A stretch of 64,000 bases of DNA, taken from Minisyncoccota bacterium (GTDB lineage Bacteria; Patescibacteriota; Minisyncoccia; Phycocordibacterales; UBA9973). This document shows positions 8,201 through 62,318 of this stretch, one piece after another. Positions within the stretch are counted from its first letter, which is position 1. Every line of letters starts with the position of its first letter. The DNA lies in the NCBI GenBank assembly GCA_041675085.1, contig JBAYUN010000001.1, forward strand, positions 170,364 through 234,363. Direction: 5' to 3'. Made by a program: the position numbers and the translations under genes. The notes beneath the pieces are model-generated. The model did no database searches. It was not told where the DNA came from and saw only the letters and a list, made by a program, of their open reading frames with translations.

Positions 8201-8219
8201 TGTGTTTATAAGATCGAAA

Positions 8220-17933: not shown

Positions 17934-19019
17934 CTATATCCCATCTTCTTTTAGTTTTTCTATATATTCTCTAGATTTTTTAGAGATTTTATTTGGCATT
18001 TTTATATTTAATTGAATCAAGATATCTCCTCTTTTACCTTTGTTCGGTACACCTTTGCCTTTCACTCTCAAGATTTCATTTATACCAACACCTTCAGGTA
18101 TAGTCACTTCGACTTTACCGTCGAGAGTCTCGAGTTCGTATTTCATACCGAGTAATGCATCCGAGAGTTTAATGTTTAAGTCTGTAGTGAGATCAAATCC
18201 TTCTCTTTTAAAAATAGGATGCCTAGAGACATTAATCTTGATATACAGATCTCCAGTAGTACCTTTTGATACAGCTTCACCCATGCCTGTCATACGGATC
18301 ATTTCGCCGTCGCGAATACCTGCGGGTACATTGATAGTGATTTCTTCTTCTTTGCGGAGGACTCCTTTACCGTGACATTTCTCACAAACTTCTTTTGGAA
18401 CTTGTCCAGATCCAGTACAAGTCTCACACATTTTTGTAGTAGAAATAGTTCCGAGTATTGTACGTTTTGCTTCGTGGATTTTACCTTGACCGTTACAAGT
18501 TTTACAAGTCTCCATCTTGGTCCCAGCTTTTGCTCCGGTCGCTTTACAAGTCTCACAACTAGAAGTCTTAGTGATCAAGACTTTGCGAGTAATGCCGAAT
18601 ACCGCCTCAGAGAAACTGATATTCATCTCAGTAGAGATATCTCGTCCGCGACGAGTTTGAGTGCGTCCTCCGCCTCCACCAAAGAAATCAGAAAAGATAT
18701 CATTCAAGTCGAATTCCATTCCACCATTTTGACCAAAGCCAGAAAAGTCGAAACCTTCAAAGCCGCCAAAACCGCCACCTTGAGGACCGTACCCTGCTCC
18801 GCCCATATTTGCATAGTTTGAGCCGAATTGATCGTATTTAGCGCGTTTTTGGTCATCAGAAAGAGTCTGGTAAGCTTCATTTACCTCTTTGAATTTCTTT
18901 TCATCTCCCTCTTTTTTGTCAGGATGATATTTATGAGCTAGTTTATAAAAAGCCTTTTTGATTTCGTCTTTTGAGGCACTTTTATTAACCCCTAATGTTT
19001 CATAATAATCTTTATTCAT
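17934..19019 (-). CDS. dnaJ: chaperone DnaJ
   Basis: J-domain [11 protein letters not shown]...HPDK, G/F-rich region, four CxxCxGxG zinc-finger repeats; start moved to MNKDYY (track ORF 13 codons longer). Confidence 0.85.
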
Positions 19020-19060: not shown

Positions 19061-20563
19061 CTAAATCATAGGCTCAGCCTCGGTTTCTTTTGTTTCTTTT
19101 TGATTTGAGAGATTTTGTTTTTCTTCTTCTCTTTCTTTTCTGTCTCCTTCTTCTGTACGTCCGGCACCTTTTATCGCAGCTTTTTCTTCAGCACTACGAA
19201 TGATAGTAGACTCTTCTTCTTGGATCAATCTCTGAGCGTCACCTTTTGAGATAGCGTATTTACGACGTGAAGCGGCTAGTATCTCATCTCGATACGAAGT
19301 ATGAGTAGGAGGTAGTATACGTAAAGTCTCTGCTGAGAAAGGGTCATAACTCTCTCCGTCGATAGTCATCTTGATATAGAATTCTCCTACAGCAAGGTTA
19401 ATCATATCTTTGACTCCGAAAAGAGGATCGAATTCAGGTTTTAAACGAGTCGCGTCTTCTCCTCCTACACGGAAAGAAATAATAGATCCGACGTTACCTA
19501 GGATAGATTGATAAATCTTTGGTTGGATCTGACCTACGTATTGGTGAGCCATGGTGAGGTTCAATCCGTATTTACGAGCCTCTGATAGAATATTTTCAAA
19601 AGTTTGAGTCACGACGTTTTGGAACTCGTCGACATAAATATAAAAATCTTTACGATCTTTCTCTAGGATATGGGCGCGCTCCATACCGGCTTGCTTGATC
19701 TTGGTCAAGAACATAGATCCAAAGAAAGAAGAATTCTCTTCACCGATTTTACCCTTAGAAAGATTTATCAAAATAATTTTCTGCTCGTTCATCAAAGTAC
19801 TAATATCTATTTTATTTTCTTTTTGACCGAAAATATTGCGGAGCAGTGGGTCAGACAAGAATTGCCCGAGTTTATTCACGAGAGGGATGATCGCGTCAGT
19901 ATCAAATTTCTCAGACCAATCCGCGAATTCGATAGCGAAGAATCTTTTAACCATATCGTCTTGGATGTATTCCACGACTTTCTGACGATAATTTCTATCA
20001 GTAAGCATAGATATCATTCCACGCATCGTCGCATACGGATAGTCTAGAAGCGCCAAACAAGTAAAACGAAAAACGTGCTCCAAACGAGGAGTCCAGTTGG
20101 CACCGAATTGCTTTTGGAAAACTTCAATCAAACCTTGAGTTAATTGAAATTTGAACATAGGGTCGACGTTCGCCAGAGGATTGAAAGAAGCTGGGAAATT
20201 CACGTCAGACGGATCAATAATACAAACGTCTTCAATACGTTCTTTTGGAATATAATCTAGCATTGAGTCTATCACATCTCCGTGAGGATCGATAAGACAA
20301 AGCCCGTGCCCATAAGTGATATCTTGACGCAAGAAAAGCTCGAGGAGTTTAGTCTTACCTACTCCAGACTTCCCTATGATATACAAGTGACGACGACGGT
20401 CGACTCTCTTAAAACCAAAAATGAATTTCTTCTCTTCCAGAGATGCAACGTAATTAGTCCGCCCAATAAAAGAAACCTCCTCAGGTTTTACCTTTCCATA
20501 GACTGGAAGCTCTGGTGGTGGTGGACCGTATTTAATTATTTGAACTCGATTTGGTTTCACCAT
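19061..20563 (-). CDS. TrwB/TraD/VirD4-like (type IV coupling protein family) P-loop ATPase, 500 aa
   Basis: Walker [11 protein letters not shown] followed by CLIDPHGD (compare TrwB GATGTGKS...VIVDPNGD), Walker [10 protein letters not shown], then [13 protein letters not shown] block as in T4CP C-terminal half. Confidence 0.55.
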
Positions 20564-20707
20564 TATTATTTTGAATTTTTATAATTAAAGTATATCATAT
20601 AAAGATACTTGTCCCGTTAAATATAACAATATAATTGTATCATATTTAATAGTAAATGCGGGCAGAGTAAGATAGTCGAATATTTTATTATTTTATTTTT
20701 AACTGGG

Positions 20708-21406
20708 ATGAAGCTACATAGATTTATCGGGGAATTTGATTTATCTGGTGAAAACACAGAAATCACAAATCTTGAAAATATCAAGCAAATAAAGGGTGTT
20801 TTAAGGCTCGACGTCGGAGACTTTTTGATACTTTGCGACGGCAAAGGCACAGAAGCTAAAGTAGAAATAACAGAAATAGAAAAAACTCATATCACTACTA
20901 AAATAGTAGAAAAAACAAAAAAGGAAAATAACTCTAAAAAAGTAAGTCTATACCTAGCAATTCTTAAAAAAGAAAATTTTGAATTAGCTATACAAAAAGT
21001 CGTCGAAATCGGGGTGACTGAAATCATACCGATAATTACCGAACGAACTGTCAAAACCGGACTCAACACAGAGAGATTAAATAAAATCATCCGTGAAGCG
21101 AGTGAACAATCGGGTAGAACTATTTTGCCTATTCTGTACCCTACTTTAAAATTTATAGACGCAATACAAGACGGAAAGAAAAATGAAGGAAAGATATTTT
21201 TTGATTTTACTGAAGACAAAAATAACACGAAGAATACAAATTCAAAAAGTATTAGTATATTTATAGGTCCTGAAGGAGGGTTCACTGAAAAAGAAAATCA
21301 CATAGCTCTCGAAAATGGTTACAAAATAGAATCATTAGGAGAAAATACACTAAGAGCCGAAACCGCAGCTATCGTCGCTACTTATAAAGTAGTAAATAAT
21401 TTATGA
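20708..21406 (+). CDS. rsmE: 16S rRNA (uracil1498-N3)-methyltransferase
   Basis: MKLHRFIGEFDL...; C-terminal IGPEGGFTEKE and LGENTLRAETAAI motifs of RsmE. Confidence 0.8.
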   Translation: MKLHRFIGEFDLSGENTEITNLENIKQIKGVLRLDVGDFLILCDGKGTEAKVEITEIEKTHITTKIVEKTKKENNSKKVSLYLAILKKENFELAIQKVVEIGVTEIIPIITERTVKTGLNTERLNKIIREASEQSGRTILPILYPTLKFIDAIQDGKKNEGKIFFDFTEDKNNTKNTNSKSISIFIGPEGGFTEKENHIALENGYKIESLGENTLRAETAAIVATYKVVNNL

Positions 21407-21409
21407 AAA

Positions 21410-21703
21410 TTATTTACTTTTAGACTCAAGTTTTTCTACACGTGTAGTAAGATTATCAATTCTTCTTTCATAAGAAATACCATCGCCATTTAAAACAGTA
21501 ATACTATTTTTGAATTCTTTGTGTTGTTCGTTGTTATTTTTTATTTCTTTTAAAATTACATCTAAAACACCTTCAACTCTTTCGAAAGATTTAGCTACAG
21601 AACGCATATTGCTTTCAGAATTATTTTCAAAATTCTTTAAAGTTTCTAAAAATAATTTTTCAGTTACGTGTTTTTCAGTTGTTTTTGGAGTTATTTTCTT
21701 CAT
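21410..21703 (-). CDS. hypothetical coiled-coil protein (97 aa)
   Basis: Lys/Glu-rich, heptad-like; no domain recognised. Confidence 0.35.
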   Translation of the reverse strand: MKKITPKTTEKHVTEKLFLETLKNFENNSESNMRSVAKSFERVEGVLDVILKEIKNNNEQHKEFKNSITVLNGDGISYERRIDNLTTRVEKLESKSK

Positions 21704-21743
21704 ATATCAATTATAACAAAACCTAAAAGCTATGCAATATATC

Positions 21744-23450
21744 CTAATACACCTCACTCTGATAACATTTCTCACAATAAACTATCTCTGGTCTCTCTGG
21801 AGCATAACTTGTTTCAAATTCATTATTGCACCCTTCTTTCATGCAAGATCGATGCCAGAGTTTAAATGGATTTCTAAAAAATAGCCTTTCATTCAACCTG
21901 CAATAGAAACAACTTCTCGGTAAAGGTAAATTCATTATTTTATAAAATTTAAATTCGTCCGAAATAACTTTAAAATTTCTTTTACAGTCTATACACTCAA
22001 AAACATTATCAATAAAACTTTCATCTACATTTTCCAAAGAAATAGGGACACCTGTCGACTCAATGGTTTGCTTGCCTGTAGTTTTTTGAATATTGTATTG
22101 AAATTTATAATTTTTATCTAAAATTTCTTTTTCATTTAAAGGGAAAAAATAATTAGCTATAGTTTCATTATATCCAAAATAAGATAATTCAATAGGAAAA
22201 AATTCACCGTATCTATATACGTTTCCTTTTTTATCTACATAAGGCATCTCATTCATATGATTCTTTATCTTCTCCACCATCTCAAAATATTCTTCTTTTT
22301 TATACTGCTTGTTAAAAATACAATAACTTTTATTCTTTAAACCAACACAACCAAATACATACTTACAATTATGGCAATGCATATTGTATTCCAAAAATTG
22401 TGATTTAACTGAAAATAAACCAAATTTATTATTACTGGAATGATCTAGTACTATACCTTCATAACCAAGCTCATGCTCTCCAGAAGTTGTAATATCATAA
22501 CAATCTAAATTTTTACCTCCCTGTTGAATATATTTACAATTTTCTATCTTATCACCAATAAAACAATTTTGAGAATTTTTAGAATTACTTAATAGATCTC
22601 CTGTAACATTTAATGATTGAATTATATGAGCATATTTTCTTGGATATTTTAAAATAAATTCTTTAAATTCTTTCTTTGCTCTTTGCCTACCTTCATAAGT
22701 ATTAAGTTCATAAGTAGACAAAATTTTTTCATATTCTTCTTTAGTGTACTTTTTATTTTTAAAGCAATACTTCTCTCCTCGTAAACCTATACACATAAAA
22801 CAATCTGAACAATTACGACAATCATACAAAAAATCGGAATCTATACAAGATACACAAAAATATGAGCTTTTTAATTTATAACTATGTGAGCAATCTAAAC
22901 AATCATACATCCATTCTGAAGATTCTAAAATACAAGTACAATCTGTCATATTTTTACCGGCTAAAACCATATATCCATAAGAAACATTTTCTATATGCCA
23001 AGAACAAAAAGTCATATAACAGTTTTTAGAAAACCAAGTATCACCAGTATATTCACATTTAATGCTAGCTATGTTGTTATCGTTAACTAAAGCTATGTGA
23101 GGAATTTTATAAATTAATTTATTTAACTGAGAAAAGAAGTTTTCAGAAAAATTATAATCTTTTCCAGATTCAATTCCGTCCCATTTATCACTCCACCAAC
23201 ATTTATTACAATAAATAATTATATTAGATTCAGGAGAATACATTGATACTACGTTCATGTCACAAGAATCACATTTACGATTATATAAAGAAAAATCATT
23301 CCTCCAAGAAGCTCTTCTTTGGAACCTACATTCCGGACAAAAAGTTGGTGGTGGGACTTTTACCTTTTCATAGAAGGAAAAGTCATCACTTTCTATCGTA
23401 AAGTCATTTTGGCAATTCTGGCAGGTTTTCTTTTCGGATTTATATTCCAT
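21744..23450 (-). CDS. cysteine-rich multi-zinc-ribbon protein (568 aa), function unknown
   Basis: More than 50 Cys; N- and C-terminal modules of the form CxxC..F.I...F.FY.K....P..C..CR...R; internal repeats C..C.GL.G.KYC.FNK.Y.KEEY. Confidence 0.55.
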   Translation of the reverse strand: MEYKSEKKTCQNCQNDFTIESDDFSFYEKVKVPPPTFCPECRFQRRASWRNDFSLYNRKCDSCDMNVVSMYSPESNIIIYCNKCWWSDKWDGIESGKDYNFSENFFSQLNKLIYKIPHIALVNDNNIASIKCEYTGDTWFSKNCYMTFCSWHIENVSYGYMVLAGKNMTDCTCILESSEWMYDCLDCSHSYKLKSSYFCVSCIDSDFLYDCRNCSDCFMCIGLRGEKYCFKNKKYTKEEYEKILSTYELNTYEGRQRAKKEFKEFILKYPRKYAHIIQSLNVTGDLLSNSKNSQNCFIGDKIENCKYIQQGGKNLDCYDITTSGEHELGYEGIVLDHSSNNKFGLFSVKSQFLEYNMHCHNCKYVFGCVGLKNKSYCIFNKQYKKEEYFEMVEKIKNHMNEMPYVDKKGNVYRYGEFFPIELSYFGYNETIANYFFPLNEKEILDKNYKFQYNIQKTTGKQTIESTGVPISLENVDESFIDNVFECIDCKRNFKVISDEFKFYKIMNLPLPRSCFYCRLNERLFFRNPFKLWHRSCMKEGCNNEFETSYAPERPEIVYCEKCYQSEVY

Positions 23451-23454
23451 AATT

Positions 23455-25872
23455 CTACTCTCTATCTTCTAATAATCTACGCAAAACTTCTTCGGGAATT
23501 TCTTGTATGTTGCCTTCTGTTAATGGTGGTGGTGTGCCTGTTTTCTCTTTTACTGGTTCAGATTTTATTTCTTGCCCGCCTGCAACATTATGCATAGGAT
23601 TTCGGGCAAGTTTAATCTCTTCTTTTTTCTCTTCTCTTATTTCTTGCCTTGTTTCTATTTTTATTTCTTCTTTTATTTCTGACTTGATTGGTTCTGTTTT
23701 AATTTCAGGTTTTACTTGAGATTCTGTTTTGATTTGAGTATTTACGGGTGGATTTATTTTATTCCCGCCTGCAGAAGCTACTACTTCAGCATTTCGGGCA
23801 GGTTCTATTTTATCCCCGCCTGTAGCATTTCGGGCAGGGGTCACGATAATATCATCTACTTTTTCAGAAATCATATTCCTAAAACTATTCATTAAATCAG
23901 AACTCGCAGAGCGGTCTTTTGAATTTGTTGGATTTTCAATTTTGGCAACTTTTAAATCACTCAAAGAAATACCTTTGTTTATATCGTCATTATTTTTATC
24001 AGGAATGTTTAATCTAGGTTCGGGGATTTTTTCTTTAACTTCTTCTATATCCTTATTATGCAAGGCTATATCCAAGATTTCTTTTAGTCCTAAATTCAAA
24101 CCACTGATTTTAGGTTTTTCGGGTCTGATATGAATAGGGTTCTTTGGTATAACTTTCTCGACAATATTATTTACAAAATTTTTCTTCACAGGTGTAAAAT
24201 TATTTTTAGGAAAATCTGATTTATTTTGAGAATTAAAATTATTGTTTACAACAGGCTCAGATCTATTTTCTTTTTTTACATTAGAATTACTGTCTCCTCC
24301 AGCAAACTCTATACCTAAATCTGCAAGAGGTTTGAAAAATCTAGTCTCATCTTTTTTTAACTGATCAGGAGATACACGAATAGGTTTTATCTCGCCTGCT
24401 TTTATTTTTACAATACAGTCTTTACAGTACACAGCTCGTCCTGGTTCAGGCTTGAAAGGTACAGTAGTCATAGTGCCACAATTCGAACAAACAGTTTCAA
24501 ATTTCTCCCCGTTCGGATTGATAGCTTTGTTATTTTCGCGCGCATTACCGATATCACCGAGCGCCATACCACTCCAATCATTAATCTCTTTTTCGATGTC
24601 CTCTTTGGTACGACAATATAGCTCACGTGAGGATTCGACTACTCTTCTTTCAATATCAAGATTACCACCTTTGACCAAAGGCGCGATAGTCTTTGAAGAA
24701 AAAGGACGAGAAGTAATACCATCTATCATGAGTTTGAGATAAATCTTGTAGTTAGGTAAGTTCACGATATCCTCCGGAGTGAATTCAGGAGCAAATTCTT
24801 TTTCTAAGAAATCCGCATCGTCGGCTCCCACACGAAACACAATCATAGTCCCAACGTTACCGAAAATAGAGTCACGCATAGCACTAGACTCTTTGGTAAC
24901 CAATTGAGCTGTATATTGGTGAGCTACAGTTAGGTTCAAGCGGTATTTACGAGCCTCAGATAGAATCGAGGCAAAAGAGTCGGTGACGAAGTTTTGGAAC
25001 TCGTCGACATATAGATAAAAATCTTTACGTTCTTCTTCAGGAATACGCACACGCTCCATGGCAGCAAGCTGAATCTTGGTAATAATCATACCTCCGAGGA
25101 GCTTAGAGTTGTCTTCTCCAATACGTCCTTTGGATACGTTTACTAAGAAAATCTTGCCTTCATTCATCATGTCAAAAATATTGATAGTACTTTTTGACTG
25201 ACCAACAATATTACGAATAACAGAAGTCGAAAGGAATTGACCAACTTTGTTTTGAATCGGAGCGATAGCTTCATTACGGAATTTATCTTGCCAAGCTTCA
25301 TACTCATGAATCCAAAAAGCTTTGATCACAGGATCTTTCAAATTATTAATTATCTTTTGACGATAGTCTTTGTCTACCAACATACGAGGAATACCAAGGA
25401 GAGTAGTACCAGGAGTATCTAGCAAAGCTAGAATACAATTATTCAAAATATATTCCATACGAGCAGACCAAGCATTCGCCCAGATTTTCGTGAAAATACC
25501 CATAAGCCCCGACGCTACTAAGTGCTTGTATTTGGAATCTACAAGTTCAAGAACATTAAAACCAATATGATACTCAGTATCCGCCGGATTGAAATAAACT
25601 ACGTCTTTAAGTCTATGTTCTGGAATAGCTTGCAAAACTCCTTCGACGAGCTCACCGTGAGGGTCGACTACACACACACCTTCACCATTTAGAATATTCT
25701 GCATGATCATGTTGGACATGAGCACAGATTTACCAGTACCGGATTTTCCAAGAATATAAATATGCTGACGACGGTCGCGACGCTTGATACCAAAAAGAGT
25801 ATTCTTGTCTCTAAACGTAGAATACCCGATATAGGTCAAATCTTTATTTGGTGGCAATTGAGGCAAATCCAT
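23455..25872 (-). CDS. TrwB/VirD4-like P-loop ATPase with central zinc ribbon and long repetitive K/E/P-rich C-terminal tail (805 aa)
   Basis: YILGKSGTGKSVL...VCVVDPHGE, Walker B LYVDEFQNF, ARKYRLNLTVAHQ; zinc ribbon CSNCG...VPFKPEPGRAVYCKDC; tail with ARN-containing repeats. Confidence 0.55.
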   Translation of the reverse strand: MDLPQLPPNKDLTYIGYSTFRDKNTLFGIKRRDRRQHIYILGKSGTGKSVLMSNMIMQNILNGEGVCVVDPHGELVEGVLQAIPEHRLKDVVYFNPADTEYHIGFNVLELVDSKYKHLVASGLMGIFTKIWANAWSARMEYILNNCILALLDTPGTTLLGIPRMLVDKDYRQKIINNLKDPVIKAFWIHEYEAWQDKFRNEAIAPIQNKVGQFLSTSVIRNIVGQSKSTINIFDMMNEGKIFLVNVSKGRIGEDNSKLLGGMIITKIQLAAMERVRIPEEERKDFYLYVDEFQNFVTDSFASILSEARKYRLNLTVAHQYTAQLVTKESSAMRDSIFGNVGTMIVFRVGADDADFLEKEFAPEFTPEDIVNLPNYKIYLKLMIDGITSRPFSSKTIAPLVKGGNLDIERRVVESSRELYCRTKEDIEKEINDWSGMALGDIGNARENNKAINPNGEKFETVCSNCGTMTTVPFKPEPGRAVYCKDCIVKIKAGEIKPIRVSPDQLKKDETRFFKPLADLGIEFAGGDSNSNVKKENRSEPVVNNNFNSQNKSDFPKNNFTPVKKNFVNNIVEKVIPKNPIHIRPEKPKISGLNLGLKEILDIALHNKDIEEVKEKIPEPRLNIPDKNNDDINKGISLSDLKVAKIENPTNSKDRSASSDLMNSFRNMISEKVDDIIVTPARNATGGDKIEPARNAEVVASAGGNKINPPVNTQIKTESQVKPEIKTEPIKSEIKEEIKIETRQEIREEKKEEIKLARNPMHNVAGGQEIKSEPVKEKTGTPPPLTEGNIQEIPEEVLRRLLEDRE

Positions 25873-25944
25873 ACTCTCAATTATAGCAAAAAACCCATTG
25901 CATTTCTACAAGGGTTTTTTGTTAATTACTTTTCTAAAAATTTT

Positions 25945-25979: not shown

Positions 25980-27881
25980 TTATTTTTGTTCTCCTTCTGA
26001 TTCTGGAGTTGATTCTCCGTCTTTAACTTCAGTCGGTTGTTCTTCGACTGTACTACTTTCTTCTTTTGGAGCTTCAGGATTAGCTTTATTCATAGCTTCC
26101 CCAATCTTAGACATTTCACTAGATAATTCTTCTGTAGCTTTCTTGATACTTTCCATATCTGTACCATCTTTCACAGAACGTAGATTTGCAACTTTAGCAT
26201 CTACTTCTGTTTTTAACTCTGCTGGAATTTTACCTTCCGCGTCTTTTAGAGATTTCTCAGCTGTATAAATAATCATCTCGGCAGTATTTTTCACATCTAC
26301 TAATTCTTTTTTCTTTTTATCTTCTTCAGCATTAAGTTCTGCATCTGCTTGCATTTTCTTAATATCTTCATCTTTAAGTCCTGAACTTGCTTCGATACGA
26401 ATAGATTGAGTTTTACCTGAAGCTTTCTCCATAGCTTTCACATTTAGAATACCGTTTGCATCCACATCAAAAGTAACTTCAACTTGAGGAATACCACGAG
26501 GGCTTGGTGGGACTCCATCTAGGATAAATCTACCTAAAGATTTATTGTCACTTGCCATAGGGCGTTCACCTTGAACTATATGAATCTCGACTGAAGTTTG
26601 GTTGTCTGCAGCAGTAGAGAAAATCTGAGATTTAGAAGCCGGGATAGTAGTATTTCTCTCAACGAGTTTTGTGGCGACTCCTCCTAAAGTCTCGATACCG
26701 AGAGATAGAGGGATAACGTCGAGCAATAATACATCACGCACATCTCCAGCCAATACTCCAGCTTGAACCGCAGCTCCGAGAGCTACAACTTCGTCAGGAT
26801 TAATAGATAAGTTTGGAGATTTTCCAAAAACTTTCTTTACTTCTTCTACTATCTTTGGCATACGAGTCTGACCTCCAACCATTATGATTTCGTGAATATC
26901 ATTCATTGTAAATCCTGAAGCAGCTAAAGCCTTTTTAGTGATTTCTATAGAACGAGTTATATATTCGTCAGCAATAGATTCTAATTGAGCGCGAGACATT
27001 TTAAGTAGTAAGTGTTGAGGTCCTTCGGCTGTTGAGGTAATGAAAGGAATATTGATTTCTGTTTCTACGGCTGTAGAGAGTTCAATTTTTGCTTTTTCTG
27101 CAGCTTCATCTAGTCTTTGAAGAGCGAGCTTGTCATTGCGTACATCAACTCCAGAAGTCTTTTTAAATTCTTCTGCGATCCAAGATATAATCTTGTGATC
27201 TATATCACGTCCTCCTAAATGAGAATCTCCATCAGTAGACTTTACTTCGATAACATCGTCCCCAATCTCCAAAACAGATACGTCGAAAGTTCCTCCTCCA
27301 AAGTCATAAACTACAACTTTTTCATTTTTCTTTTTATTGAATCCATAAGCGAGGGCCGCAGCTGTCGGTTCATTGATAATTCTCTTTACATCTAGTCCAG
27401 CGATAACTCCAGCATCTTTAGTAGCTTTTCTTTGAGCATCATTGAAATAAGCAGGGACAGTGATCACAGCTTCGGTTATTTTCTCTCCAGTTTTTGCTTC
27501 GACGTCTGCTTTGATTTTAGATAAAATCATAGCAGAGACTTCCTCAGGGCGCATCCATTTATCTCCGATCATAACCTCGACTCCACCGTCAGTTCCTTTT
27601 TGAATCTTGAAAGACATATTTTTTAAATCTTTCTGAACTTCTGGATCTTCAAAATTGTGACCCATAAATCTCTTGATACCGTAGATAGTATTTTCTGGAT
27701 TTGTTACGGCTTGACGTTTTGCTAGAAGTCCTACAAGTCTATCTCCATTTTTTGCAATAGAAACAATAGACGGAGTAGTTCGAGCTCCTTCGATATTTTC
27801 TACAATCTTTGGATTTCCTCCTTCAATTATAGCGACTGCACTATTTGTTGTACCTAAATCTATACCTATTATTTTTGACAT
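25980..27881 (-). CDS. dnaK: chaperone DnaK (Hsp70)
   Basis: [18 protein letters not shown], 633 aa. Confidence 0.95.
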
Positions 27882-28020
27882 ATTTTTTATTTTAATTAAT
27901 TTATAATAATTTAAATTTATAATTTTTATAAAAAAAATTTTTCTAGAGCCTTATCTTTTATGACTTAACGACGAAAAATTTCTTTTTGTAAAAATTTAAA
28001 ATAATCTATATTTTACTTGT

Positions 28021-28036
28021 TTTTCGCGACCGCGAA
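28021..28036. promoter_or_regulatory. palindrome TTTCGCG-ACC-GCGAAA overlapping -35 region of a TTGTATAAT promoter
   Basis: tttcgcgaccgcgaaa followed 7 nt later by ttgtataat (extended -10) upstream of the PaaX-like gene; divergent from dnaK. Confidence 0.35.
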
Positions 28037-28643: not shown

Positions 28644-29267
28644 TTATTCCTTAAATTCAAAAACATTCACTCTCGCTGGACGGAGGACTCGGTCACCTAT
28701 TTTATAACCTTTTTGAATAACTTGCGCTATAGTATGATTTTTATCTTTTTCAGTAGTTTCTACCATCTCTAATGATTCATGAATATTCGGATCAAAATTC
28801 TCACCCTCTTGGCCTATCTCTTTGACTCCATATTCTTCAAAAACAGTATTCATTTGAGAGTGAATATACTCTACTCCTTTACGCCAATTCATGTCTACTT
28901 TCTCCCATGCCTCCTTGTTCGCAAAAGCCATATTGAAACTATCCATCACGCTTAAAAAGCGAGAAAGTATCCTCTCGCGCATAGATTCAGAGAACATAGT
29001 CTTTCTATCTTCTTCTTGTTTTTTGTAATTCGCAAAATCAGCTCTCTCTTTTTGCCAACCGTTTAGGTATTCGGTGCGTTCTTTGCGAGCTTGTTTTAAA
29101 TCAAGTCTTAATTTCTTTAATGTTTTATGCAGATCTGCCTCACCGTCATCATTGAATTCAAATTCAACTATTTCTTCGTCTTCTTTTGTATCTGTATTAT
29201 CTGGAATAGTTTTATCGTCGCCTAAATCTAAATCTTCTAATTTTATTTTTTTATCTTCTTCATTCAT
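28644..29267 (-). CDS. grpE: nucleotide exchange factor GrpE
   Basis: FANYKKQEEDRK, coiled-coil N-terminus, C-terminal beta domain GDRVLRPARV. Confidence 0.85.
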   Translation of the reverse strand: MNEEDKKIKLEDLDLGDDKTIPDNTDTKEDEEIVEFEFNDDGEADLHKTLKKLRLDLKQARKERTEYLNGWQKERADFANYKKQEEDRKTMFSESMRERILSRFLSVMDSFNMAFANKEAWEKVDMNWRKGVEYIHSQMNTVFEEYGVKEIGQEGENFDPNIHESLEMVETTEKDKNHTIAQVIQKGYKIGDRVLRPARVNVFEFKE

Positions 29268-40491: not shown

Positions 40492-41778
40492 TTATGTAGG
40501 TAGATTTGTAGGTGGAGAAGCTTCTTTACTTTCAACACGTTCCAAAGTAGGAATTTTCAAGATTTGACCAGGGAAATGCCACAGGGTCGCTATCTCTTCT
40601 ACATTTAATACAAAAGTCGGTTGAGGCTTGTATGCCTTAAAAAACATAGGTGAAATAGGCCAAGGTAAATGCTCCGTATCAAAAAGCTCTTGTCTTAATT
40701 GACCATGATAAAAAGACCGTCCTCGGTATTCACCCAGCATCCTATTTGATAGCTCCATGACCTGCTCTTGGTTTAAAACAGTTATCAATCCACCATACGC
40801 ATCAGCTTGAGTGCCATTTACACGAGTAAAGCTATTCAAAGCAGGATTCGCATATTGTCTAAAAACCAATCTTAAATTACGTCTATTATTAGCATCAAAA
40901 TTTTCTTTTTTAGCAACATAGCAAGTACGCAAACCAACATCAAAACCTATCTTCTGCATCTTTGTACTAATACCTTTCACTTCAGCTTCCACAGCAAAAG
41001 GTGGTCTGACTTTTGTGAGAGTTTCTCCTTCTATAACATTCATGCGTGCATATTTTTCAAAAAGTCTTTCTAATTCTTGTTTAGATTCTTCAACCCAGTC
41101 ATGCTTCTTACCATCTGGTCCAGTAAAAGTATTCTTAGAAGGCCTTATTACCATTTGAAACCACATTTGCTCTCCTTTACCCATAGAAGCAAAAAGTTCA
41201 ATCAAAGGAGAAAGTGGATCAATTTTTAAAGTCTCTTCATCTTGTTCATCAAGTCCAAAATCGGCATAAGTTTTAATAGGATAAGCGTCAGGTTTTTCTA
41301 ATTTCCATTCACAACCATATAAATTCCACTGACTATCTGGAGTTATCTCGTCTACACCAAAAGTATAATCATCAACAACTCTAACTTGAGATTGAGGATA
41401 CTGTGCATACATTTGAGTTTCGATCAATCCTTTAATACGGCTCGGTGTACGAATATAAAAACGTACCTGCCCTTCAATAGATACAATTTCCAAAGAATAC
41501 CAAAACCATACTGCTCCTTGCCAGTATTCCTCACGTCCACCTTTCATACTCCAATGATAAAGAGCATTAGTAAAAAATAATTCCATAGCACGAGGACTAC
41601 GTAAAACCTCACGAGGTGGAATAACTTCCAATAATACATAATCAATACCAGAAATAAAACTCTGCTGGATATAATGCATCCACATAGCCCAAGCCATGCG
41701 ACCCAAAAAATATGTCAGGAATAAAATCCAAACAATATCTGGTATCCAATTAAAAATTTTAATCACAGCATCAAACAT
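40492..41778 (-). CDS. hypothetical membrane-anchored protein (428 aa)
   Basis: N-terminal TM, Trp-rich soluble domain; no recognised family. Confidence 0.45.
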   Translation of the reverse strand: MFDAVIKIFNWIPDIVWILFLTYFLGRMAWAMWMHYIQQSFISGIDYVLLEVIPPREVLRSPRAMELFFTNALYHWSMKGGREEYWQGAVWFWYSLEIVSIEGQVRFYIRTPSRIKGLIETQMYAQYPQSQVRVVDDYTFGVDEITPDSQWNLYGCEWKLEKPDAYPIKTYADFGLDEQDEETLKIDPLSPLIELFASMGKGEQMWFQMVIRPSKNTFTGPDGKKHDWVEESKQELERLFEKYARMNVIEGETLTKVRPPFAVEAEVKGISTKMQKIGFDVGLRTCYVAKKENFDANNRRNLRLVFRQYANPALNSFTRVNGTQADAYGGLITVLNQEQVMELSNRMLGEYRGRSFYHGQLRQELFDTEHLPWPISPMFFKAYKPQPTFVLNVEEIATLWHFPGQILKIPTLERVESKEASPPTNLPT

Positions 41779-41845: not shown

Positions 41846-42880
41846 TTAAACTACGTTATAGAGTCCGTCTTTATTCTTTTTGAAATATTTTGAGTTAGCA
41901 AGATTTACTAAAATTGTATTTTTCTTAAAGTATCTCTCTTTCATAACTTTCTCAACAACATCTTCTTTAGTCATTGGACCTTCTTTTTTGATGATATCTT
42001 TTATCACATCACGAGCGATACCAGTCTTGTATCCCCACTCAGAAAGTGCATAAAGTCCACGTCCCACAAGCACAAATCTACTATCTTTGATAAGCTCATT
42101 GTGAGTCGTTGCGTAATGAGATTTTCTGCCGAAAGTTTTAGAGATAGAATCAGTTACTTCCTTGAAGTGCATTGGAGATCCATGTTTCCTCATAACAAGA
42201 AAAGCATAATCTTTCACTCCTCTAGTGTGTACGTTTTGAGAATTTGATTTACCCCAATCTCCTAGTGGATTCTTGGAAACTGTTTTTGATACAGCGAGCC
42301 ATCTCTTTGCCATTTCATCATTTTTGTAATGATCAGCTACGTCTTTCATTTGGTCGAAAAATCTCTTGATCATTTCTGTTTCAGGGATAAGGTCTTCGTC
42401 TTTTAGTGAAGCATAAAGTTTTTTCAAAGACTCATGAACCTTGTCTGCCATTTCGTCATCCACACTCCAGCGAGTTTTGAAATGATCATCTTCTTTGTGT
42501 TTTTTAAAAACATCTCCTAAAACTAGATAAAAATGAATATGATTTTGAACCGATTTATCTTTAGAGATATGATTCAAGAAATCGTGCTCAGATACTATCG
42601 AACCTAGAGAGTGAATAAGAGTTTTAATTTCTTCAAATAGAGCTTGTTCTGCTTTGAAGGCAGGAGATTTTTTGATTAAATTAATACTATTTTCTTTGAT
42701 TTGTCTAACTCTTTCTCTTGTTATGTTGTATTTTTTACCTATTTCTTCGAGAGTTTTGCGTTCTAGGTCGTTTGGATTTAATCCGAAACGGTTCATAATA
42801 ACATCACTTGCACGTTCTGGTAAGTGAGAGATTATTCTTTTTGTAACTTGTTTTGGCTTAAATGATATTGTGGATGACAT
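41846..42880 (-). CDS. sigma-70 region 4-like HTH plus C-terminal HARE-HTH-like domain protein
   Basis: N-terminus VIMNRFGL...KTLEEIGKKYNITRERVRQIKENSINLIKK (region 4.2-like); C-terminus AFLVMRKHGSPMHFKEVTDSI...DSRFVLVGRGLYALSEWGY (HARE-HTH-like). Confidence 0.5.
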   Translation of the reverse strand: MSSTISFKPKQVTKRIISHLPERASDVIMNRFGLNPNDLERKTLEEIGKKYNITRERVRQIKENSINLIKKSPAFKAEQALFEEIKTLIHSLGSIVSEHDFLNHISKDKSVQNHIHFYLVLGDVFKKHKEDDHFKTRWSVDDEMADKVHESLKKLYASLKDEDLIPETEMIKRFFDQMKDVADHYKNDEMAKRWLAVSKTVSKNPLGDWGKSNSQNVHTRGVKDYAFLVMRKHGSPMHFKEVTDSISKTFGRKSHYATTHNELIKDSRFVLVGRGLYALSEWGYKTGIARDVIKDIIKKEGPMTKEDVVEKVMKERYFKKNTILVNLANSKYFKKNKDGLYNVV

Positions 42881-59267: not shown

Positions 59268-59981
59268 TTATATCGAGTTATTTTCTCCTAATACAGATTG
59301 ACTAGAATTTGTATTAGAAGTTGAACCATTATTGGGTGGCAAACTAGGGTCAGTATTTGTACTAGGAGTACTATTTACAGAAGGATTTATTATAGGATCA
59401 AAACCAGAAGTAGTATTGGTATTTGTCGTATTAGGAGGAGGTATAAAAGGATCTGAAGTCTCAATAGGATCTAGATTGTCGTCAATGGGTGTAACTCCTA
59501 TCGGATCAACCTCTACAGGATCAAATTGAGTGCCTGTACCAGTTGTTGTACCTGTAGTAGTTCCAGTACCTGTTCCCGCTCCTGAACCCGTCCCTGTATT
59601 TGTCCCCGTACCAGGAGGATTGAAAGGAATCGTAGGATTGTAATCATTTAGTTGTACAGTCCCCGCTTCTGGATCAATCCCCGTGATATTTAAAGTATTT
59701 AAAACTAAGTTTAGAATACCCCAAACACCCATCATAACAGTCAAACCAATAACTCCATAAAGCATATGATTCTTGCCATTAGTGCGCTCTGTTTCATTAT
59801 CAGCATTTGTTAAGAAAACAAAAACTCCATAAAGAAAATAAGCTATACCAATAGCAAAAAGCAATCGAATCAAAGGATTCACTATCACAGAATTAAAATT
59901 ACCTAAAAAGGAATTAAAATCTGCGTATGCTATATTGGGTAAAAATATTGAAAATAAATCCATAATTTTTATTGTGGACAA
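59268..59981 (-). CDS. TrbC/VirB2-like pilin paralog 6 with Gly/Thr/Pro-rich C-terminal tail
   Basis: Shared two-helix core AYFLYGVFVFL...ERTNGKNHMLYGVIGLTVMMGVWGILN; tail GTGTNTGTGSGAGTGTGTTTG. Confidence 0.45.
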   Translation of the reverse strand: MSTIKIMDLFSIFLPNIAYADFNSFLGNFNSVIVNPLIRLLFAIGIAYFLYGVFVFLTNADNETERTNGKNHMLYGVIGLTVMMGVWGILNLVLNTLNITGIDPEAGTVQLNDYNPTIPFNPPGTGTNTGTGSGAGTGTGTTTGTTTGTGTQFDPVEVDPIGVTPIDDNLDPIETSDPFIPPPNTTNTNTTSGFDPIINPSVNSTPSTNTDPSLPPNNGSTSNTNSSQSVLGENNSI

Positions 59982-60388
59982 TCTACACCAGGAGATTCAA
60001 TACAAGGAATAGAGATTTCAGTATCAGCAACATCTAATCCAACGAAGTTTTTGATGAAGTTAACCAATCCCCAAACAGATACGATAACCATCAACGCAAT
60101 AAGACCGTTGATCATAGCACCCCTTCCTTCAGTCTTTGCATCTTCATCACGAGCAATAGCATAGTGAATAACACCCCAGATAAAGTAGATAACTGCAAGA
60201 GTTATTAATACTGGAATAACATTATTTAAAATTGTAGCAATTCTACAAAGTAGAACGTTGAAAGCGTTCGGGTCTGGAATAGCGAAACAACCAGTTGCTT
60301 GCGCAGAAGCTAGTTGAGGAGCAAGAAAAGTAGCGAACATAAACACAGAACTAACAATCAAACCTAAACTCATTAATTTTTTCTTCAT
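59969..60388 (-). CDS. TrbC/VirB2-like pilin paralog 5
   Basis: Signal peptide ...LASAQA; core AVIYFIWGVIHYAIARDEDAKTEGRGAMINGLIALMVIVSVWGLVNF. Confidence 0.5.
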   Translation of the reverse strand: MKKKLMSLGLIVSSVFMFATFLAPQLASAQATGCFAIPDPNAFNVLLCRIATILNNVIPVLITLAVIYFIWGVIHYAIARDEDAKTEGRGAMINGLIALMVIVSVWGLVNFIKNFVGLDVADTEISIPCIESPGVDCPQ

Positions 60389-60530
60389 ATTTATATTTTT
60401 ATTTATTATTCTGTATTTTGTAATACAGAAAGTTATTTTTAATAATTTATAATTTCTATTTGATTCGACCTTTTTATATTCCTAAAGATTAGGTTAATTA
60501 AATTATATCATACCTATATGTGAAATAAAG

Positions 60531-60920
60531 CTAATTTGTGAATACCTGTGGAATAATACTTATATTTAATCCAAAAGTTCCCCCGAGAATAGCTACCAAC
60601 CCCCAAACAGATACCATCACAGTCAGAGCAATAATCCCCCAAACCATGAATTGCTTGCCCTTTTCACGTTTACCTTCGTCGGCTTCGTTTAGGACGTATT
60701 GCATGACTCCATACAGAAATAGTACGAGAGCTAAAGCAAAAATAAAAGGTACTACAGCCGTATTAATAATACAGATCACATAGTCTACTAGATTATTAAA
60801 TTTAGGGTTTGCAGACAGATTACAACCACCTCCTGTACCTTGCGCATTAGCTAAATAGGGACTGAAAACAATCAGTGTAAAGAAGAGTACAAGGAATAAA
60901 TTTTTAAAAATATTTTTCAT
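60531..60920 (-). CDS. TrbC/VirB2-like pilin paralog 4
   Basis: Signal peptide ...LANAQG; YVICIINTAVVPFIFALALVLFLYGVMQYVLNEADEGKREKGKQFMVWGIIALTVMVSVWGLV (compare VirB2 VNNICTFILGPFGQSLAVLGIVAIGISWMFG). Confidence 0.5.
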   Translation of the reverse strand: MKNIFKNLFLVLFFTLIVFSPYLANAQGTGGGCNLSANPKFNNLVDYVICIINTAVVPFIFALALVLFLYGVMQYVLNEADEGKREKGKQFMVWGIIALTVMVSVWGLVAILGGTFGLNISIIPQVFTN

Positions 60921-60923
60921 AAA

Positions 60924-61454
60924 TTAATTTGGTGTTACTGAGGGTATTATCCTAGTATTGATACCAAAGGTCCCGCCAAGGAGATTTACCAACCCCCAAA
61001 CAGATACCATCACAGTCAGAGCAATAATCCCCCAAACCATGAATTGCTTTCCCTTTTCACGTTTACCTTCGTCGGCTTCGTTTAGGACGTATTGCATGAC
61101 TCCGTACACAAACATGACTAATGCTAGAGAGAATATCAAAGGAACTACTGACAGGTTTAAAATACAACTCGTATAGCTTATAACATCTTGGATTTTAGGA
61201 TTAGTAGCTAAAGAACAACCTACACCACCTCCTCCAGACCCAGACCCACTGCCTCCACCAGCACCTCCTCCTCCATTACCACTCCCGTTATCTCCTCCAT
61301 AATCACAACCTTGTGCTAACCACTGAGCACTACCTACTTCTAAATCAGCACATTGAGCTTGTGCAATATTTGGAGTTGTAGTTAGAAAGACTGAAAAAGA
61401 AAGGACGAACAACATTAACAAAGGTAACAAATTTTTTTTAAATATATTCTTCAT
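60924..61454 (-). CDS. TrbC/VirB2-like pilin paralog 3 with Gly-rich insert
   Basis: Core about 120 nt near-identical to paralog 4; N-domain GGDNGSGNGGGGAGGGSGSGSGGGGVGC with 4 Cys. Confidence 0.5.
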   Translation of the reverse strand: MKNIFKKNLLPLLMLFVLSFSVFLTTTPNIAQAQCADLEVGSAQWLAQGCDYGGDNGSGNGGGGAGGGSGSGSGGGGVGCSLATNPKIQDVISYTSCILNLSVVPLIFSLALVMFVYGVMQYVLNEADEGKREKGKQFMVWGIIALTVMVSVWGLVNLLGGTFGINTRIIPSVTPN

Positions 61455-61466
61455 AAATTTTAATTT

Positions 61467-61868
61467 TTATAATGATAAAACTGTCTCTGATATTAATTGT
61501 GCAATAGCCCAAGAACCCAAGAGTATAGCAGCTCCGATAACGGTATAAAGTAAAGCGTCCTTGGCTTCTTTGATCTTATCAGGCTTGCCTATAGCAGTCA
61601 CAAAAAGGAAACCAGAATATATAATAGCTATAGCTACTAGAGGGATACCTATTTTGATAATACCTTCGAGAATAGTCTTTACAAAATCTTGTACATTATT
61701 TGCCTTAATAGGATTATCAATAGTAACAGCAGCTGTAGGAGTATTAGGTCCAGATCCAGTTGATTGAGCTAAAGAAATAACAGGAGAGAAAACAATCAAA
61801 CCAAAAACCAAAACTAATAATATGCTTGCTAGATAATTCTTTTTAAAATTCATATTAATATTATACAT
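61467..61868 (-). CDS. TrbC/VirB2-like pilin paralog 2
   Basis: Signal peptide ...ISLAQS; IGIPLVAIAIIYSGFLFVTAIGKPDKIKEAKDALLYTVIGAAILLGSWAI. Confidence 0.5.
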   Translation of the reverse strand: MYNINMNFKKNYLASILLVLVFGLIVFSPVISLAQSTGSGPNTPTAAVTIDNPIKANNVQDFVKTILEGIIKIGIPLVAIAIIYSGFLFVTAIGKPDKIKEAKDALLYTVIGAAILLGSWAIAQLISETVLSL

Positions 61869-61871
61869 TAT

Positions 61872-62318
61872 TTAAAATCCAATCCAAGCACCATCATAAC
61901 CCAACACAGATAAAATAGTACTAATTATCAACCAACAAGCGGCTATGATGATAAGCCCCTTGGCTGTATTCCAAAATATACTTTTTGCTTTTTCTCTTTG
62001 GGAAGACTGACCTCCAGAAAAAAGAAGCAAGAATCCCGCATACGCGAAAGCAATAGCTGCCAGGGGTAAAGCAAGCACAGTAAGAATAAAATTGATAATT
62101 TTATTTATCATAAATAAAAAATAATTGAAATCGCAAGGATTAATAATTGCCCCATCTTTATCTTTGTCATTACCACAAGGAACTAACCCACCCAAAGAAC
62201 GACTAGTTGATGAAGTAGATTCGTCTTTTAGAGTACTTTGAGCAAATGCTAAAAATGGATTCATTAATAAAAATCCTACTACATACAAAGACACAAAAGT
62301 TTTTAAAAAAGTTTTCAT
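61872..62318 (-). CDS. TrbC/VirB2-like pilin paralog 1
   Basis: Signal peptide ...LAFAQS; Cys pair PCGNDKDKDGAIINPCDF; core LALPLAAIAFAYAGFLLLFSGGQSSQREKAKSIFWNTAKGLIIIAACWLI. Confidence 0.5.
   Translation of the reverse strand: MKTFLKTFVSLYVVGFLLMNPFLAFAQSTLKDESTSSTSRSLGGLVPCGNDKDKDGAIINPCDFNYFLFMINKIINFILTVLALPLAAIAFAYAGFLLLFSGGQSSQREKAKSIFWNTAKGLIIIAACWLIISTILSVLGYDGAWIGF

Follow-up and report, generated by a model that had tools for sequence, protein, structure and literature searches.

Two soluble ATPases predicted to be encoded between dnaK and dnaJ, designated A805 and A500, were best explained as paralogues of the type IV coupling protein (T4CP) ATPase that were inherited vertically and rank with housekeeping genes, not as a mobile insert, and a probability of roughly 45% was assigned to this explanation as a whole. 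The window was the entire 64-kb stretch of DNA analyzed, which belongs to the core chromosome of an ultra-small Paceibacteria bacterium known from a “Candidatus Paceibacterota” MAG; its features are listed in Table 1. As judged from sequence, the predicted role of the ATPases is most likely that of a membrane-docked translocation or substrate-recruitment motor. The explanation is favored by their placement in the T4CP family, their behavior as core genes, their linkage to genes encoding Cys-rich proteins such as Cys568, the zinc-ribbon type shared with those proteins, and a pilin array in the window. Counting against it are the distant locations of Cys568 orthologues, the lack of virB4 in 74 kb, the modest similarity between ribbons, the low-confidence model of the Cys568 center, and a 22-bit match for the putative membrane partner (TMp), as well as a report that a t4cp homologue was non-essential in Southlakia, where T4SS genes were essential.

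Table 1. Positions of the features discussed, numbered from the first nucleotide of the 64-kb window
Feature	Coordinates	Strand	Evidence or remark
dnaJ	17934..19019	-	DnaJ, DnaJ_CXXCXGXG, and DnaJ_C domains; flanking gene
A500, paralogous soluble ATPase without zinc ribbon, 500 aa	19061..20563	-	Pfam, homology to A805
rsmE, 16S rRNA m3U1498 methyltransferase	20708..21406	+	PF04452 (Methyltrans_RNA) 2e-41, TIGR00046 157.7 bits
97-aa helical ORF	21410..21703	-	Lineage-specific
Cys568, 568-aa Cys-rich protein	21744..23450	-	37 Cys, double-zinc-ribbon modules
A805, soluble VirD4/TrwB-type P-loop ATPase, 805 aa	23455..25872	-	Pfam, TIGR04272
Intrinsic-terminator hairpin with U-run, 3' of dnaK	25887..25921	-	Fold -28.8 kcal/mol, z -3.5
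dnaK	25980..27881	-	HSP70 2e-243; flanking gene
grpE	28644..29267	-	
TMp, separately encoded membrane half of coupling protein	40492..41778	-	
sigHTH, Sigma70_r4 + HARE-HTH domain protein, conserved upstream neighbor of TMp	41846..42880	-	Pfam
Six tandem VirB2-like T4SS pilin genes	59268..62318	-	PF18895

A805 scored above the Pfam cutoffs for TrwB_AAD_bind, T4SS-DNA_transf, and TraG-D_C, with 48.3 bits for PF10412 (cutoff, 20.5; profile positions 10 to 311 of 387), 42.3 for PF02534 (cutoff, 20.1), 36.8 for PF01935, 30.2 for PF12696, and 47.5 for PF23477, and A500 also passed coupling-protein models (PF10412, 30.0 bits; PF02534, 25.8 bits). Scores of the ATPase half against VirB4 models were far below the cutoffs (TIGR00929, 14.7 bits against 643; CD1110, 31 bits against 325). 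Walker A and Walker B were intact in both proteins, which have in common the motifs GKSG(T/V)GK(S/T), DPHG(E/D), YVDEFQN, and EARKY.LNLT.AHQY. These motifs and the resemblance to TrwB/VirD4 had been recognized in an earlier, sequence-only reading of this DNA, and the HMM searches, in which T4CP models outscored HerA models, support assignment of A805 and A500 to the TrwB/VirD4/TraD coupling-protein class. That reading had also described the two ATPases as much diverged from each other, which did not hold: they align with 43% identity over 438 aa (E = 7e-127) and by this similarity are clear paralogues. Thousands of Paceibacteria proteins matched A805 with about 68% identity, and homologues with 27 to 33% identity were found within plasmid T4SS clusters, including a cluster of PrgI, VirB4-like, T4CP, relaxase-like, and NlpC-P60 genes.

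The ATPase core of A805 comprised aa 1 to 440, with Walker A starting at aa 42, and was followed by a CxxC-x17-CxxC zinc ribbon at aa 456 to 489 (nt 24406 to 24507) and a 316-aa tail. The ribbon, also picked out in the earlier reading, exceeded the cutoffs of zf_Tbcl_2 (47.5 bits against 27) and TIGR04272 (52.4 against 36) and was present in 66 of 82 A805-type relatives and in none of the 17 A500-type proteins. The tail, which had been called long and repetitive, was indeed of low complexity (rich in K, E, N, I, and P) and weakly repetitive, with the conserved short islands FFKPLADLGIEF and EVPEDVL.KILE. No transmembrane (TM) segment was found in A805 or A500 (maximum 19-residue hydropathy, 1.13 and 0.92, respectively); the N-terminal anchor that T4CPs carry in the same polypeptide is encoded here by a separate gene, that for TMp.

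TMp, which like the pilin array had been overlooked in the sequence-only reading, combines a hydrophobic helix at its N terminus with a domain whose fold is that of the VirB4/TraC/TrwK N-terminal domain. It is homologous to the N-terminal half of membrane-anchored T4CPs, with only 22 bits in the single directed comparison made, to an Embleya plasmid protein. In the window, its gene lies about 15 kb from the ATPase genes; the order sigHTH-TMp-ATPase was found in 45 of 80 loci, the usual operon being secD-secF-sigHTH-TMp-ATPase. The pilin array, about 33 kb from the ATPase module, was identified with PF18895 (26.5 to 33.4 bits; cutoff, 26.6) and, for two genes, PF04956, and precomputed annotation agreed. 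The window had been described as containing no relaxase, integrase, or VirB4/B6/B8-B11; a search of the window and of the adjoining 10 kb past its 64-kb end (74 kb in total) indeed turned up no relaxase, integrase, or VirB4, but T4SS genes are not absent from the window, as the six VirB2-like pilin genes demonstrate. These pilins were the only genes present of the mating-pair-formation and relaxase types with which T4CPs are co-encoded, and classical conjugation is unlikely, as had been proposed, given that no relaxase, integrase, or VirB4 was detected.

Cys568 contains 37 cysteines (6.5%), not the more than 50 once counted. Duplicated double-zinc-ribbon modules occupy both ends (aa 1 to 95 and 478 to 568), and the center, in which a C-rich motif recurs with NKxY.KEEY after it, is variable and probably forms a beta-solenoid, as predicted in a low-confidence model. 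Paralogues retain the terminal zinc modules, including invariant basic and aromatic residues (CR.QRR..WRN), and differ in the center. The family, which comprised at least 4,456 clusters at 50% identity, had no matching model in the copies of Pfam and NCBIfam searched; matches of Cys568 to zinc-ribbon models were all below threshold (zf_Tbcl, 15.5 bits; zf_Tbcl_2, 13.6 and 14.3 bits), and alignment to the A805 ribbon with hhalign gave 83% and 66% (E = 9e-6 and 5e-5), a modest similarity.

The positions of dnaK and dnaJ agreed with the earlier reading, and the ORFs of 805, 568, 97, and 500 aa were confirmed, like dnaK and dnaJ, on the minus strand and rsmE on the plus strand. The window also contains clpB and a second J-domain gene. 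The description of a five-gene insert was too broad. The gene rsmE is an old neighbor of dnaJ, as in the B. subtilis dnaK operon; it occupied the equivalent place in three related loci (L008, L016, and L088) and is a housekeeping neighbor outside the module. The 97-aa ORF had no tblastn homologue among 99 related loci and only below-threshold coiled-coil matches (Pfam/NCBIfam), a second Cys-rich paralogue takes its place in the closest relative, and the ORF probably lies outside the conserved module. The order dnaK-A805...A500-dnaJ was kept in at least 10 related species, so the interruption is not a unique insertion. Identities to the closest relative were 98.8% for A500, 97.4% for A805, 92% for RsmE, 78% for Cys568, and 77% for DnaJ, and at greater distance the ATPases remained 80 to 85% identical, comparable to DnaK.

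The leading alternative, itself doubtful, is an FtsK/HerA-like nucleic-acid motor: the ATPases would have been exapted to work in the cytoplasm in the handling of chromosomes, in repair, or in uptake and would not serve secretion, and the zinc-ribbon proteins would be accessory factors that bind DNA or RNA. Solubility, core-gene conservation, the lack of adjacent T4SS genes, and the basic and aromatic residues of the zinc-ribbon modules are compatible with such a motor, exaptation has been raised as a possibility for VirD4-type homologues of Patescibacteria in a published survey (PMC12102498), and DUF87/HerA models match as well. The DUF87 scores (A805, 36.8 bits, above the cutoff of 23.2; A500, 22.2 bits, below it) were, however, lower than the T4CP scores, and a membrane partner with a VirB4 N-terminal fold is conserved in an operon with the ATPase, beside secDF. 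It is unlikely that the ATPase pair alone is the functional unit and that the Cys-rich genes are unrelated neighbors, a fast-expanding tandem family in permissive intergenic slots. The best Cys568 orthologues elsewhere lie between scpAB/vanY and mraY-ftsW-murG, far from ATPases, and therefore adjacency here could reflect where tandem arrays of the family grow; further paralogues lie between grpE and a PaaX-like gene, and L008, L013, and L016 hold dnaK-A805...A500-dnaJ without a Cys gene. Against this, Cys paralogues were located within 10 kb of an ATPase in 13 of 25 Paceibacteria-type loci compared to 0 of 55 more distant loci, and Cys568 and A805 share a related zinc-ribbon type. The co-occurrence across genomes on which the earlier reading had staked its proposal was thus found, in two settings, one linked to dnaK (L006, L009 to L012, L014, and L015) and an independent one in which Cys paralogues are found repeatedly between TMp and the ATPases (L028, L029, L031, and L032).

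It is very unlikely that the module is an unfoldase or translocase under heat-shock control or a client system of DnaK/DnaJ. Such a tie to proteostasis would account for the place in the dnaK operon, as at least 11 genomes carry the module between grpE/dnaK and dnaJ, A500 ends 41 bp upstream of dnaJ with no hairpin in between (the two are probably co-transcribed), and clpB and the second J-domain gene are in the window. Co-transcription of dnaK and A805 is nevertheless unlikely because of the conserved terminator 3' of dnaK: GC hairpins with T-runs occur there in six relatives as well (L006, L008 to L011, and L013). Between dnaK and the A805 gene, downstream of the hairpin and just 5' of the A805 start, is a TGcTATAAT box (TGnTATAAT; 25880 to 25888) within a promoter-like site (25908..25880). 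No CIRCE inverted repeat was found upstream of dnaK or grpE with up to 3 mismatches allowed. In most Patescibacteria the ATPase follows secDF-TMp, away from dnaK, and grpE-dnaK-dnaJ is contiguous (L034 and L052); the nearest relative (L088) lacks dnaK upstream. The proposed co-transcription in a heat-shock context was not upheld, given the terminator, the opposite strand of rsmE, and the prevailing secDF location. That the module is the remnant of an integrated conjugative or defense element is extremely improbable: relatives occur on plasmids and 7 IMG/VR contigs, and PADLOC mad8 matched at 59 bits, but no integrase, relaxase, or flanking repeats were found, base composition equals that of the flanks, and purifying selection is extreme and synteny vertical.

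Within the preferred reading, that of inherited coupling-protein paralogues, the comparisons show that the ancestral protein was a membrane-anchored ATPase of ~820 aa, which in Patescibacteria was split into TMp (a TM helix and the VirB4-like domain) and a soluble ATPase with a C-terminal zinc ribbon and disordered tail. The ATPase was duplicated in a subset of Paceibacteria, with Cys-family members between or beside the two copies, and in the Nomurabacteria-like clade of the window the trio moved into the dnaK..dnaJ interval, with TMp left at 40.5 to 41.8 kb. A805 and A500 would assemble into homo- or hetero-oligomeric hexamers, ring-shaped and docked at the membrane through TMp; partners would be recruited by the A805 zinc ribbon and by motifs in its tail; and the Cys-rich proteins, with their related zinc ribbons, conserved ends, and variable middle, may be adaptors or cargo. 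More speculatively, the motor could feed the pilus-bearing T4SS of the phylum or drive transfer of nucleic acid or protein to or from the host. A bolder version, rather improbable as a whole, is a previously undescribed Paceibacteria macromolecule-transfer device in which a split and duplicated motor (TMp, A500, and A805), with a diversified family of double-zinc-ribbon/beta-solenoid proteins as nucleic-acid-binding adaptors or cargo, would carry host-derived RNA/DNA or effector proteins through the membrane, whether or not the pilus-bearing T4SS takes part. If true, this would connect with the reliance of the phylum on nucleic acids from the host, for which the uptake mechanism was left explicitly unresolved in the report describing it (bioRxiv 10.64898/2026.06.21.733656).

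Patescibacteria account for much of bacterial diversity and live at the expense of host cells; their T4SS was essential in the one species tested, and the VirD4-like ATPases, ~2 in a genome, have yet to be assigned a role. The ATPases described here are conserved like DnaK and correspond to the soluble portion of a coupling protein that has been split; TMp, the membrane portion, folds like VirB4. No literature description was found of the Cys-rich zinc-ribbon family accompanying them in Paceibacteria. Together, the ATPases, TMp, and the zinc-ribbon family are defined partners that make the role of VirD4-like ATPases testable.

A survey of VirD4-type T4CPs in Patescibacteria counted 5,713 homologues in 2,918 genomes (about 2 in each), of which just 148 were close to virB4 (Quinonero-Coronel et al. 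2025, PMC12102498). A805 and A500 are most likely the same proteins. In the passages of that report that were consulted, no mention was found of the missing TM domain, a membrane partner resembling the VirB4 N-terminal domain, or the zinc ribbon, nor of a location in the dnaK operon, the A805/A500 pair, or the family of Cys-rich proteins. Conjugative elements of monoderms and archaea encode membrane-anchored T4CPs (for example, an 812-aa protein of an Embleya plasmid and TraG-like proteins of Sulfolobus and haloarchaeal plasmids); these and phrog_5156 have a core 27 to 33% identical to the ATPase over ~90% of its length and an N-terminal half homologous to TMp. Those T4CPs are single polypeptides encoded on mobile elements beside VirB4, PrgI, and relaxase-like genes, whereas A805/TMp is divided between two chromosomal genes, is strongly conserved, and includes a zinc ribbon. 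TrwB, on which the structural view of T4CPs is modeled, is anchored by two TM helices at its N terminus and lacks both a VirB4-like N-terminal domain and a zinc ribbon. The R388 protein (PDB 1e9r) was the only solved structure that a sequence search matched, in the region around Walker A (E = 5e-7); the TrwB_AAD_bind alignment covered aa 30 to 349 of A805, with low similarity to TrwB outside the P-loop. VirB4/TrwK of the R388 T4SS inner-membrane complex had no sequence-level match, and the two halves are separate genes here. In the Legionella DotL-DotM-DotN complex, a VirD4-like ATPase works with a separate membrane partner, a small zinc-binding subunit, and adaptors on a C-terminal extension, an arrangement to which A805, TMp, and the zinc-ribbon proteins may be likened by analogy only.

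All seven genes that the sequence-only reading had named in and around the dnaK-dnaJ interval were present at the coordinates tabulated here. Both ATPase-encoding genes, for an 805-aa protein (A805) and its 500-aa paralogue (A500), contained the described motifs GKSG(T/V)GK(S/T), DPHG(E/D), YVDEFQN, and EARKY.LNLT.AHQY. The zinc ribbon attributed to A805 was confirmed as CxxC-x17-CxxC at aa 456 to 489, with scores over the cutoffs of zf_Tbcl_2 (47.5 bits) and TIGR04272 (52.4 bits). The A805 tail was long, as claimed (316 aa), and rich in K, E, N, I, and P, its repetitiveness amounting just to weak 12- and 24-nt repeats. The two ATPases had been called much diverged from each other; they are plain paralogues (43% identity over 438 aa, E = 7e-127). 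The ribbon was found in 66 of 82 A805-type proteins versus 0 of 17 A500-type paralogues; of the two window ATPases, A805 bears the ribbon and a motif-bearing tail. Walker A and B were intact in all but one of the 17 A500-type proteins; among A805-type relatives, Walker B was matched in all and the strict Walker A pattern missed several.

Coordinates of features in the window (locus positions in nucleotides)
Feature	Position	Strand	Description
PaaX_M (Cas2-like) + winged-helix protein	28017-28637	+	between grpE and dnaK, opposite strand
grpE	28644-29267	-	
dnaK	25980-27881	-	
A805	23455-25872	-	ATPase with zinc ribbon
Cys568	21744-23450	-	568-aa Cys-rich protein
97-aa ORF	21410-21703	-	
rsmE	20708-21406	+	
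A500	19061-20563	-	ATPase, A805 paralogue
dnaJ	17934-19019	-	
sigHTH	41846-42880	-	Sigma70_r4 + HARE-HTH; window homologue, precedes TMp
TMp	40492-41778	-	membrane-half protein; window homologue, sharing 30% identity with a reference (E = 6e-63)
J-domain-only protein	46174-46947	+	257 aa; divergent from adjoining clpB
clpB	46990-49680	-	
VirB2-like pilin array	59268-62318	-	six tandem genes, 129-237 aa, all matching T4SS_pilin PF18895
ORF without Pfam match	5679-6413		200-430 aa
ORF without Pfam match	33515-34819		200-430 aa
ORF without Pfam match	56682-57461		200-430 aa
ORF without Pfam match	57649-58575		200-430 aa
ORF without Pfam match	58602-59207		200-430 aa

The proposed likeness of the ATPases to TrwB/TraD/VirD4 was right, based on Pfam matches, a sequence match to the solved structure of TrwB, and plasmid relatives from type IV secretion system (T4SS) clusters. 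A805 scored over the Pfam cutoffs for TrwB_AAD_bind (48.3 bits), T4SS-DNA_transf (42.3), TraG-D_C (30.2), and DUF87 (36.8), and A500 over those for the first three; matches to the NCBIfam models for VirB4, TraD, and CedD were all far under cutoff. TrwB was the only solved structure reached by sequence search with the ATPases. Plasmid relatives detected by tblastn were 27 to 39% identical over approximately 90% of the ATPase core. These included an 812-aa type IV coupling protein (T4CP) on an Embleya plasmid, in a cluster with PrgI, a VirB4-like ATPase, a replication-relaxation protein, and NlpC/P60, as well as TraG-like proteins on Sulfolobus and haloarchaeal plasmids. The nearest relative found outside Patescibacteria was a stand-alone soluble homologue (395 aa, 39% identical to A805) at positions 5986 to 7173 of locus L097, from an alphaproteobacterial Sulfitobacter plasmid (NZ_CP081110.1), with neighboring recombinase and transposase genes. 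A role in defense was rejected, as PADLOC matched only generic ATPase models (mad8, HerA) and gave no match for the Cys-rich protein (Cys568) or for the membrane-half protein (TMp).

Neither A805 nor A500 contains a hydrophobic segment, and Walker A begins approximately 40 residues from the N terminus. Neighbor clustering of 80 species-level genome loci holding A805 relatives revealed a protein of approximately 460 aa with N-terminal transmembrane helices, encoded directly upstream of the ATPase on the same strand in 59 loci (gap of ≤100 bp in 48 of these). A Sigma70_r4 plus HARE-HTH protein (sigHTH) was encoded further upstream in 45 loci, preceded by secD/secF in 33 to 34. In the window, TMp is followed by mltG, mnmA, and alaS, and the ATPase slot is empty; the halves lie 15 kb apart. 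TMp had no match in the Pfam and NCBIfam copies searched (the Pfam copy lacking PF26449), and its homologues carry PF26449 in the database's precomputed annotation. Its likeness to known proteins appeared only at the fold level, with no match to PDB by sequence. VirB4 was the sole P-loop ATPase among the top structural matches, so the predicted fold of this membrane half probably resembles the VirB4 N-terminal domain, although the structure-search tools did not report the aligned target residues.

TMp is also tied to the ATPase by two independent fusions. On the PHROG 5156 profile (824 positions), TMp aligned to positions 25 to 187 (E = 6e-9), A805 to 386 to 805 (E = 3.5e-64), and A500 to 393 to 817. 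In a directed test, a TMp HMM matched the Embleya T4CP (22 bits, P = 3.6e-9) in two collinear stretches of its N-terminal extension, just ahead of the ATPase domain. Judged from these profile alignments, TMp and the ATPase of Patescibacteria are a split coupling protein, the ATPase half of which is duplicated in a subset of Paceibacteria.

The sequence-only reading had found no relaxase, integrase, or VirB4 in the window, and this stood: none was detected in Pfam scans of approximately 50 window ORFs (the 51 of ≥150 aa minus a few, plus several shorter ones) or, by precomputed Pfam annotation, among genes called in the 10 kb past the 64-kb end. The window does contain T4SS components: the six-gene array corresponds to the array of VirB2-like pilins reported from the Patescibacteria T4SS. 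Each of its pilins has a signal peptide and two transmembrane helices, and two also match TrbC/VirB2. An SBP_bac_8 gene flanks the array, with no virB4 within 10 kb; three of the tabulated ORFs without Pfam matches are membrane or surface-like and adjoin it on the opposite strand.

Cys568 contains 37 cysteines, not the more than 50 reported earlier. At least 6,835 homologues were found, all annotated as hypothetical and none with a Pfam match, and a profile search gave at least 4,456 representatives at 50% identity. The best 150 of these were 433 to 612 aa, most with full-profile coverage, and showed neither extra domains nor domain fusions of the Rosetta-stone type. The terminal modules of Cys568 (aa 1 to 95 and 478 to 568) duplicate one another (hhalign 98.9%, E = 2e-17) and contain two four-Cys zinc ribbons apiece, along with invariant CR.QRR..WRN-type basic/aromatic residues. 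In both modules, the second ribbon is similar to that of A805 (hhalign 83% and 66%); Pfam matches to zf_Tbcl and zf_Tbcl_2 were subthreshold. A C-rich motif followed by NKxY.KEEY is visible twice in the center. The center varied across a set of 35 paralogues (median identity 40%), in which terminal ribbons 1, 3, and 4 were retained. Literature on DUF8128 and on CxxC-x17-CxxC yielded nothing relevant to these proteins.

Members of this zinc-ribbon family were recurrently adjacent to the ATPases. A lack of co-occurrence across genomes would have counted against the sequence-only reading; instead, of 25 Paceibacteria-type loci, 13 had paralogues ≤10 kb from the ATPase, versus 0 of 55 more distant loci, and they did so in both TMp-linked and dnaK-linked contexts; the functional linkage is considered real but unproven. 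Six copies lie in tandem upstream of the ATPase in L020 (positions 10 to 9750), six are scattered across the grpE-dnaK-dnaJ region of L006, and four surround the ATPase in L032; paralogues in tandem arrays share just 28 to 49% identity. The nearest Cys568 orthologues elsewhere lie between scpAB/vanY and mraY-ftsW-murG.

An interruption of dnaK-dnaJ absent from all relatives would mark a unique insertion; it was shared by ten species near the window (L006 and L008 to L016), with the order grpE-(Cys)-PaaX-like-dnaK-A805-(0 to 2 Cys or rsmE)-A500-dnaJ. In distant lineages, grpE-dnaK-dnaJ is contiguous (L034, L052) and the ATPase follows secDF-sigHTH-TMp. Several Paceibacteria have an expanded ATPase/Cys set in that slot: TMp-A500-Cys with A805 inverted (L028), TMp...A500-Cys-A805 (L031), TMp-Cys-A805-Cys-Cys-Cys (L032), TMp-Cys-Cys...A500-A805 (L029), and TMp-x-A500-A805 (L022, L023). 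From these gene orders, the interruption is a conserved, clade-specific relocation rather than a one-off insertion. Insertion by a mobile element was rejected, given native base composition, vertical synteny, and the lack of flanking repeats, integrase, or relaxase. A805 and Cys568 are 100% identical to proteins encoded on a 529-kb contig of a Candidatus Paceibacterota MAG. G+C content stayed between 25 and 41% along the window, the ATPase region showing no break in composition, and the window is ordinary core chromosome, also encoding ribosomal proteins, rpoA, alaS, mnmA, mltG, typA, clpB, infB, ddl, alr, dinB, and seven tRNAs.

The ATPases are under strong purifying selection. A805-type identity was approximately 68% across Paceibacteria and 50 to 56% in Uhr-, Falkow-, Buchanan-, Moranii-, and Doudnabacteria. 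Identities to L088, the nearest relative, were 97.4% for the core of A805 and 98.8% for A500, versus 92% for rsmE, 78% for Cys568, and 77% for dnaJ. In farther relatives, ATPase identities (80 to 85%) were on a par with those of dnaK (77 to 88%), and the ATPases were more conserved than dnaJ and grpE. By these identities, A805 and A500 behave as core genes. Upstream of A805 in the nearest relative (L088, 2 to 2449; L089, 3 to 3200), whose ATPase is 97% identical, there lies in place of dnaK a gene for a secreted protein of >1,000 aa that carries PYVV..D..N.Y.ATVMKYNG repeats, from which a very recent rearrangement of the dnaK junction follows. The 97-aa ORF had no homologue in any related locus. 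A second Cys-rich paralogue occupies its position in L088, and an origin as a degraded Cys paralogue was rejected, no similarity being found.

Cotranscription of A805 with dnaK, previously suggested, is unlikely, and A500 and dnaJ probably form one transcription unit. The dnaK stop codon is followed by a strong hairpin and a U-run (z = -3.5), with GC hairpins and T-runs at the equivalent position in six relatives, and a TGcTATAAT box lies just ahead of the A805 start. The gap between A805 and Cys568 is 4 bp; that between A500 and dnaJ is 41 bp and contains no hairpin. rsmE is on the strand opposite to the ATPase genes. Control by CIRCE/HrcA was rejected, as no CIRCE element was found. Consensus promoter/terminator scanning showed no enrichment over shuffles; targeted folding of intergenic regions was more informative. 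The PaaX_M protein, whose position between grpE and dnaK is kept in at least eight related species, is a candidate for local control of the chaperone genes. grpE, dnaK, dnaJ, clpB, and the extra J-protein all lie within 30 kb.

ATPase rings may dock on TMp at the membrane, and partners would be recruited by the A805 ribbon and tail; foremost among the candidates, as adaptors or cargo, are the Cys-rich proteins. More speculatively, the motor might pass substrates to the pilus-bearing T4SS or transport proteins or nucleic acids between the cell and its host, in either direction. Uptake of host RNA has been shown in the phylum, its mechanism being unresolved (2026 preprint, bioRxiv 10.64898/2026.06.21.733656). 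According to Quinonero-Coronel et al. 2025 (PMC12102498), 5,713 VirD4-type homologues occur in 2,918 genomes, just 148 of them near virB4, and the Southlakia homologue is nonessential, with exaptation raised as a possibility. The Southlakia study reported no recognizable coupling protein inside its T4SS cluster. Typical coupling proteins carry an N-terminal membrane domain, which is absent from A805 and A500. Overall, the ATPases belong to a known protein class; their architecture is new, as are the candidate partners, and their function is putative.
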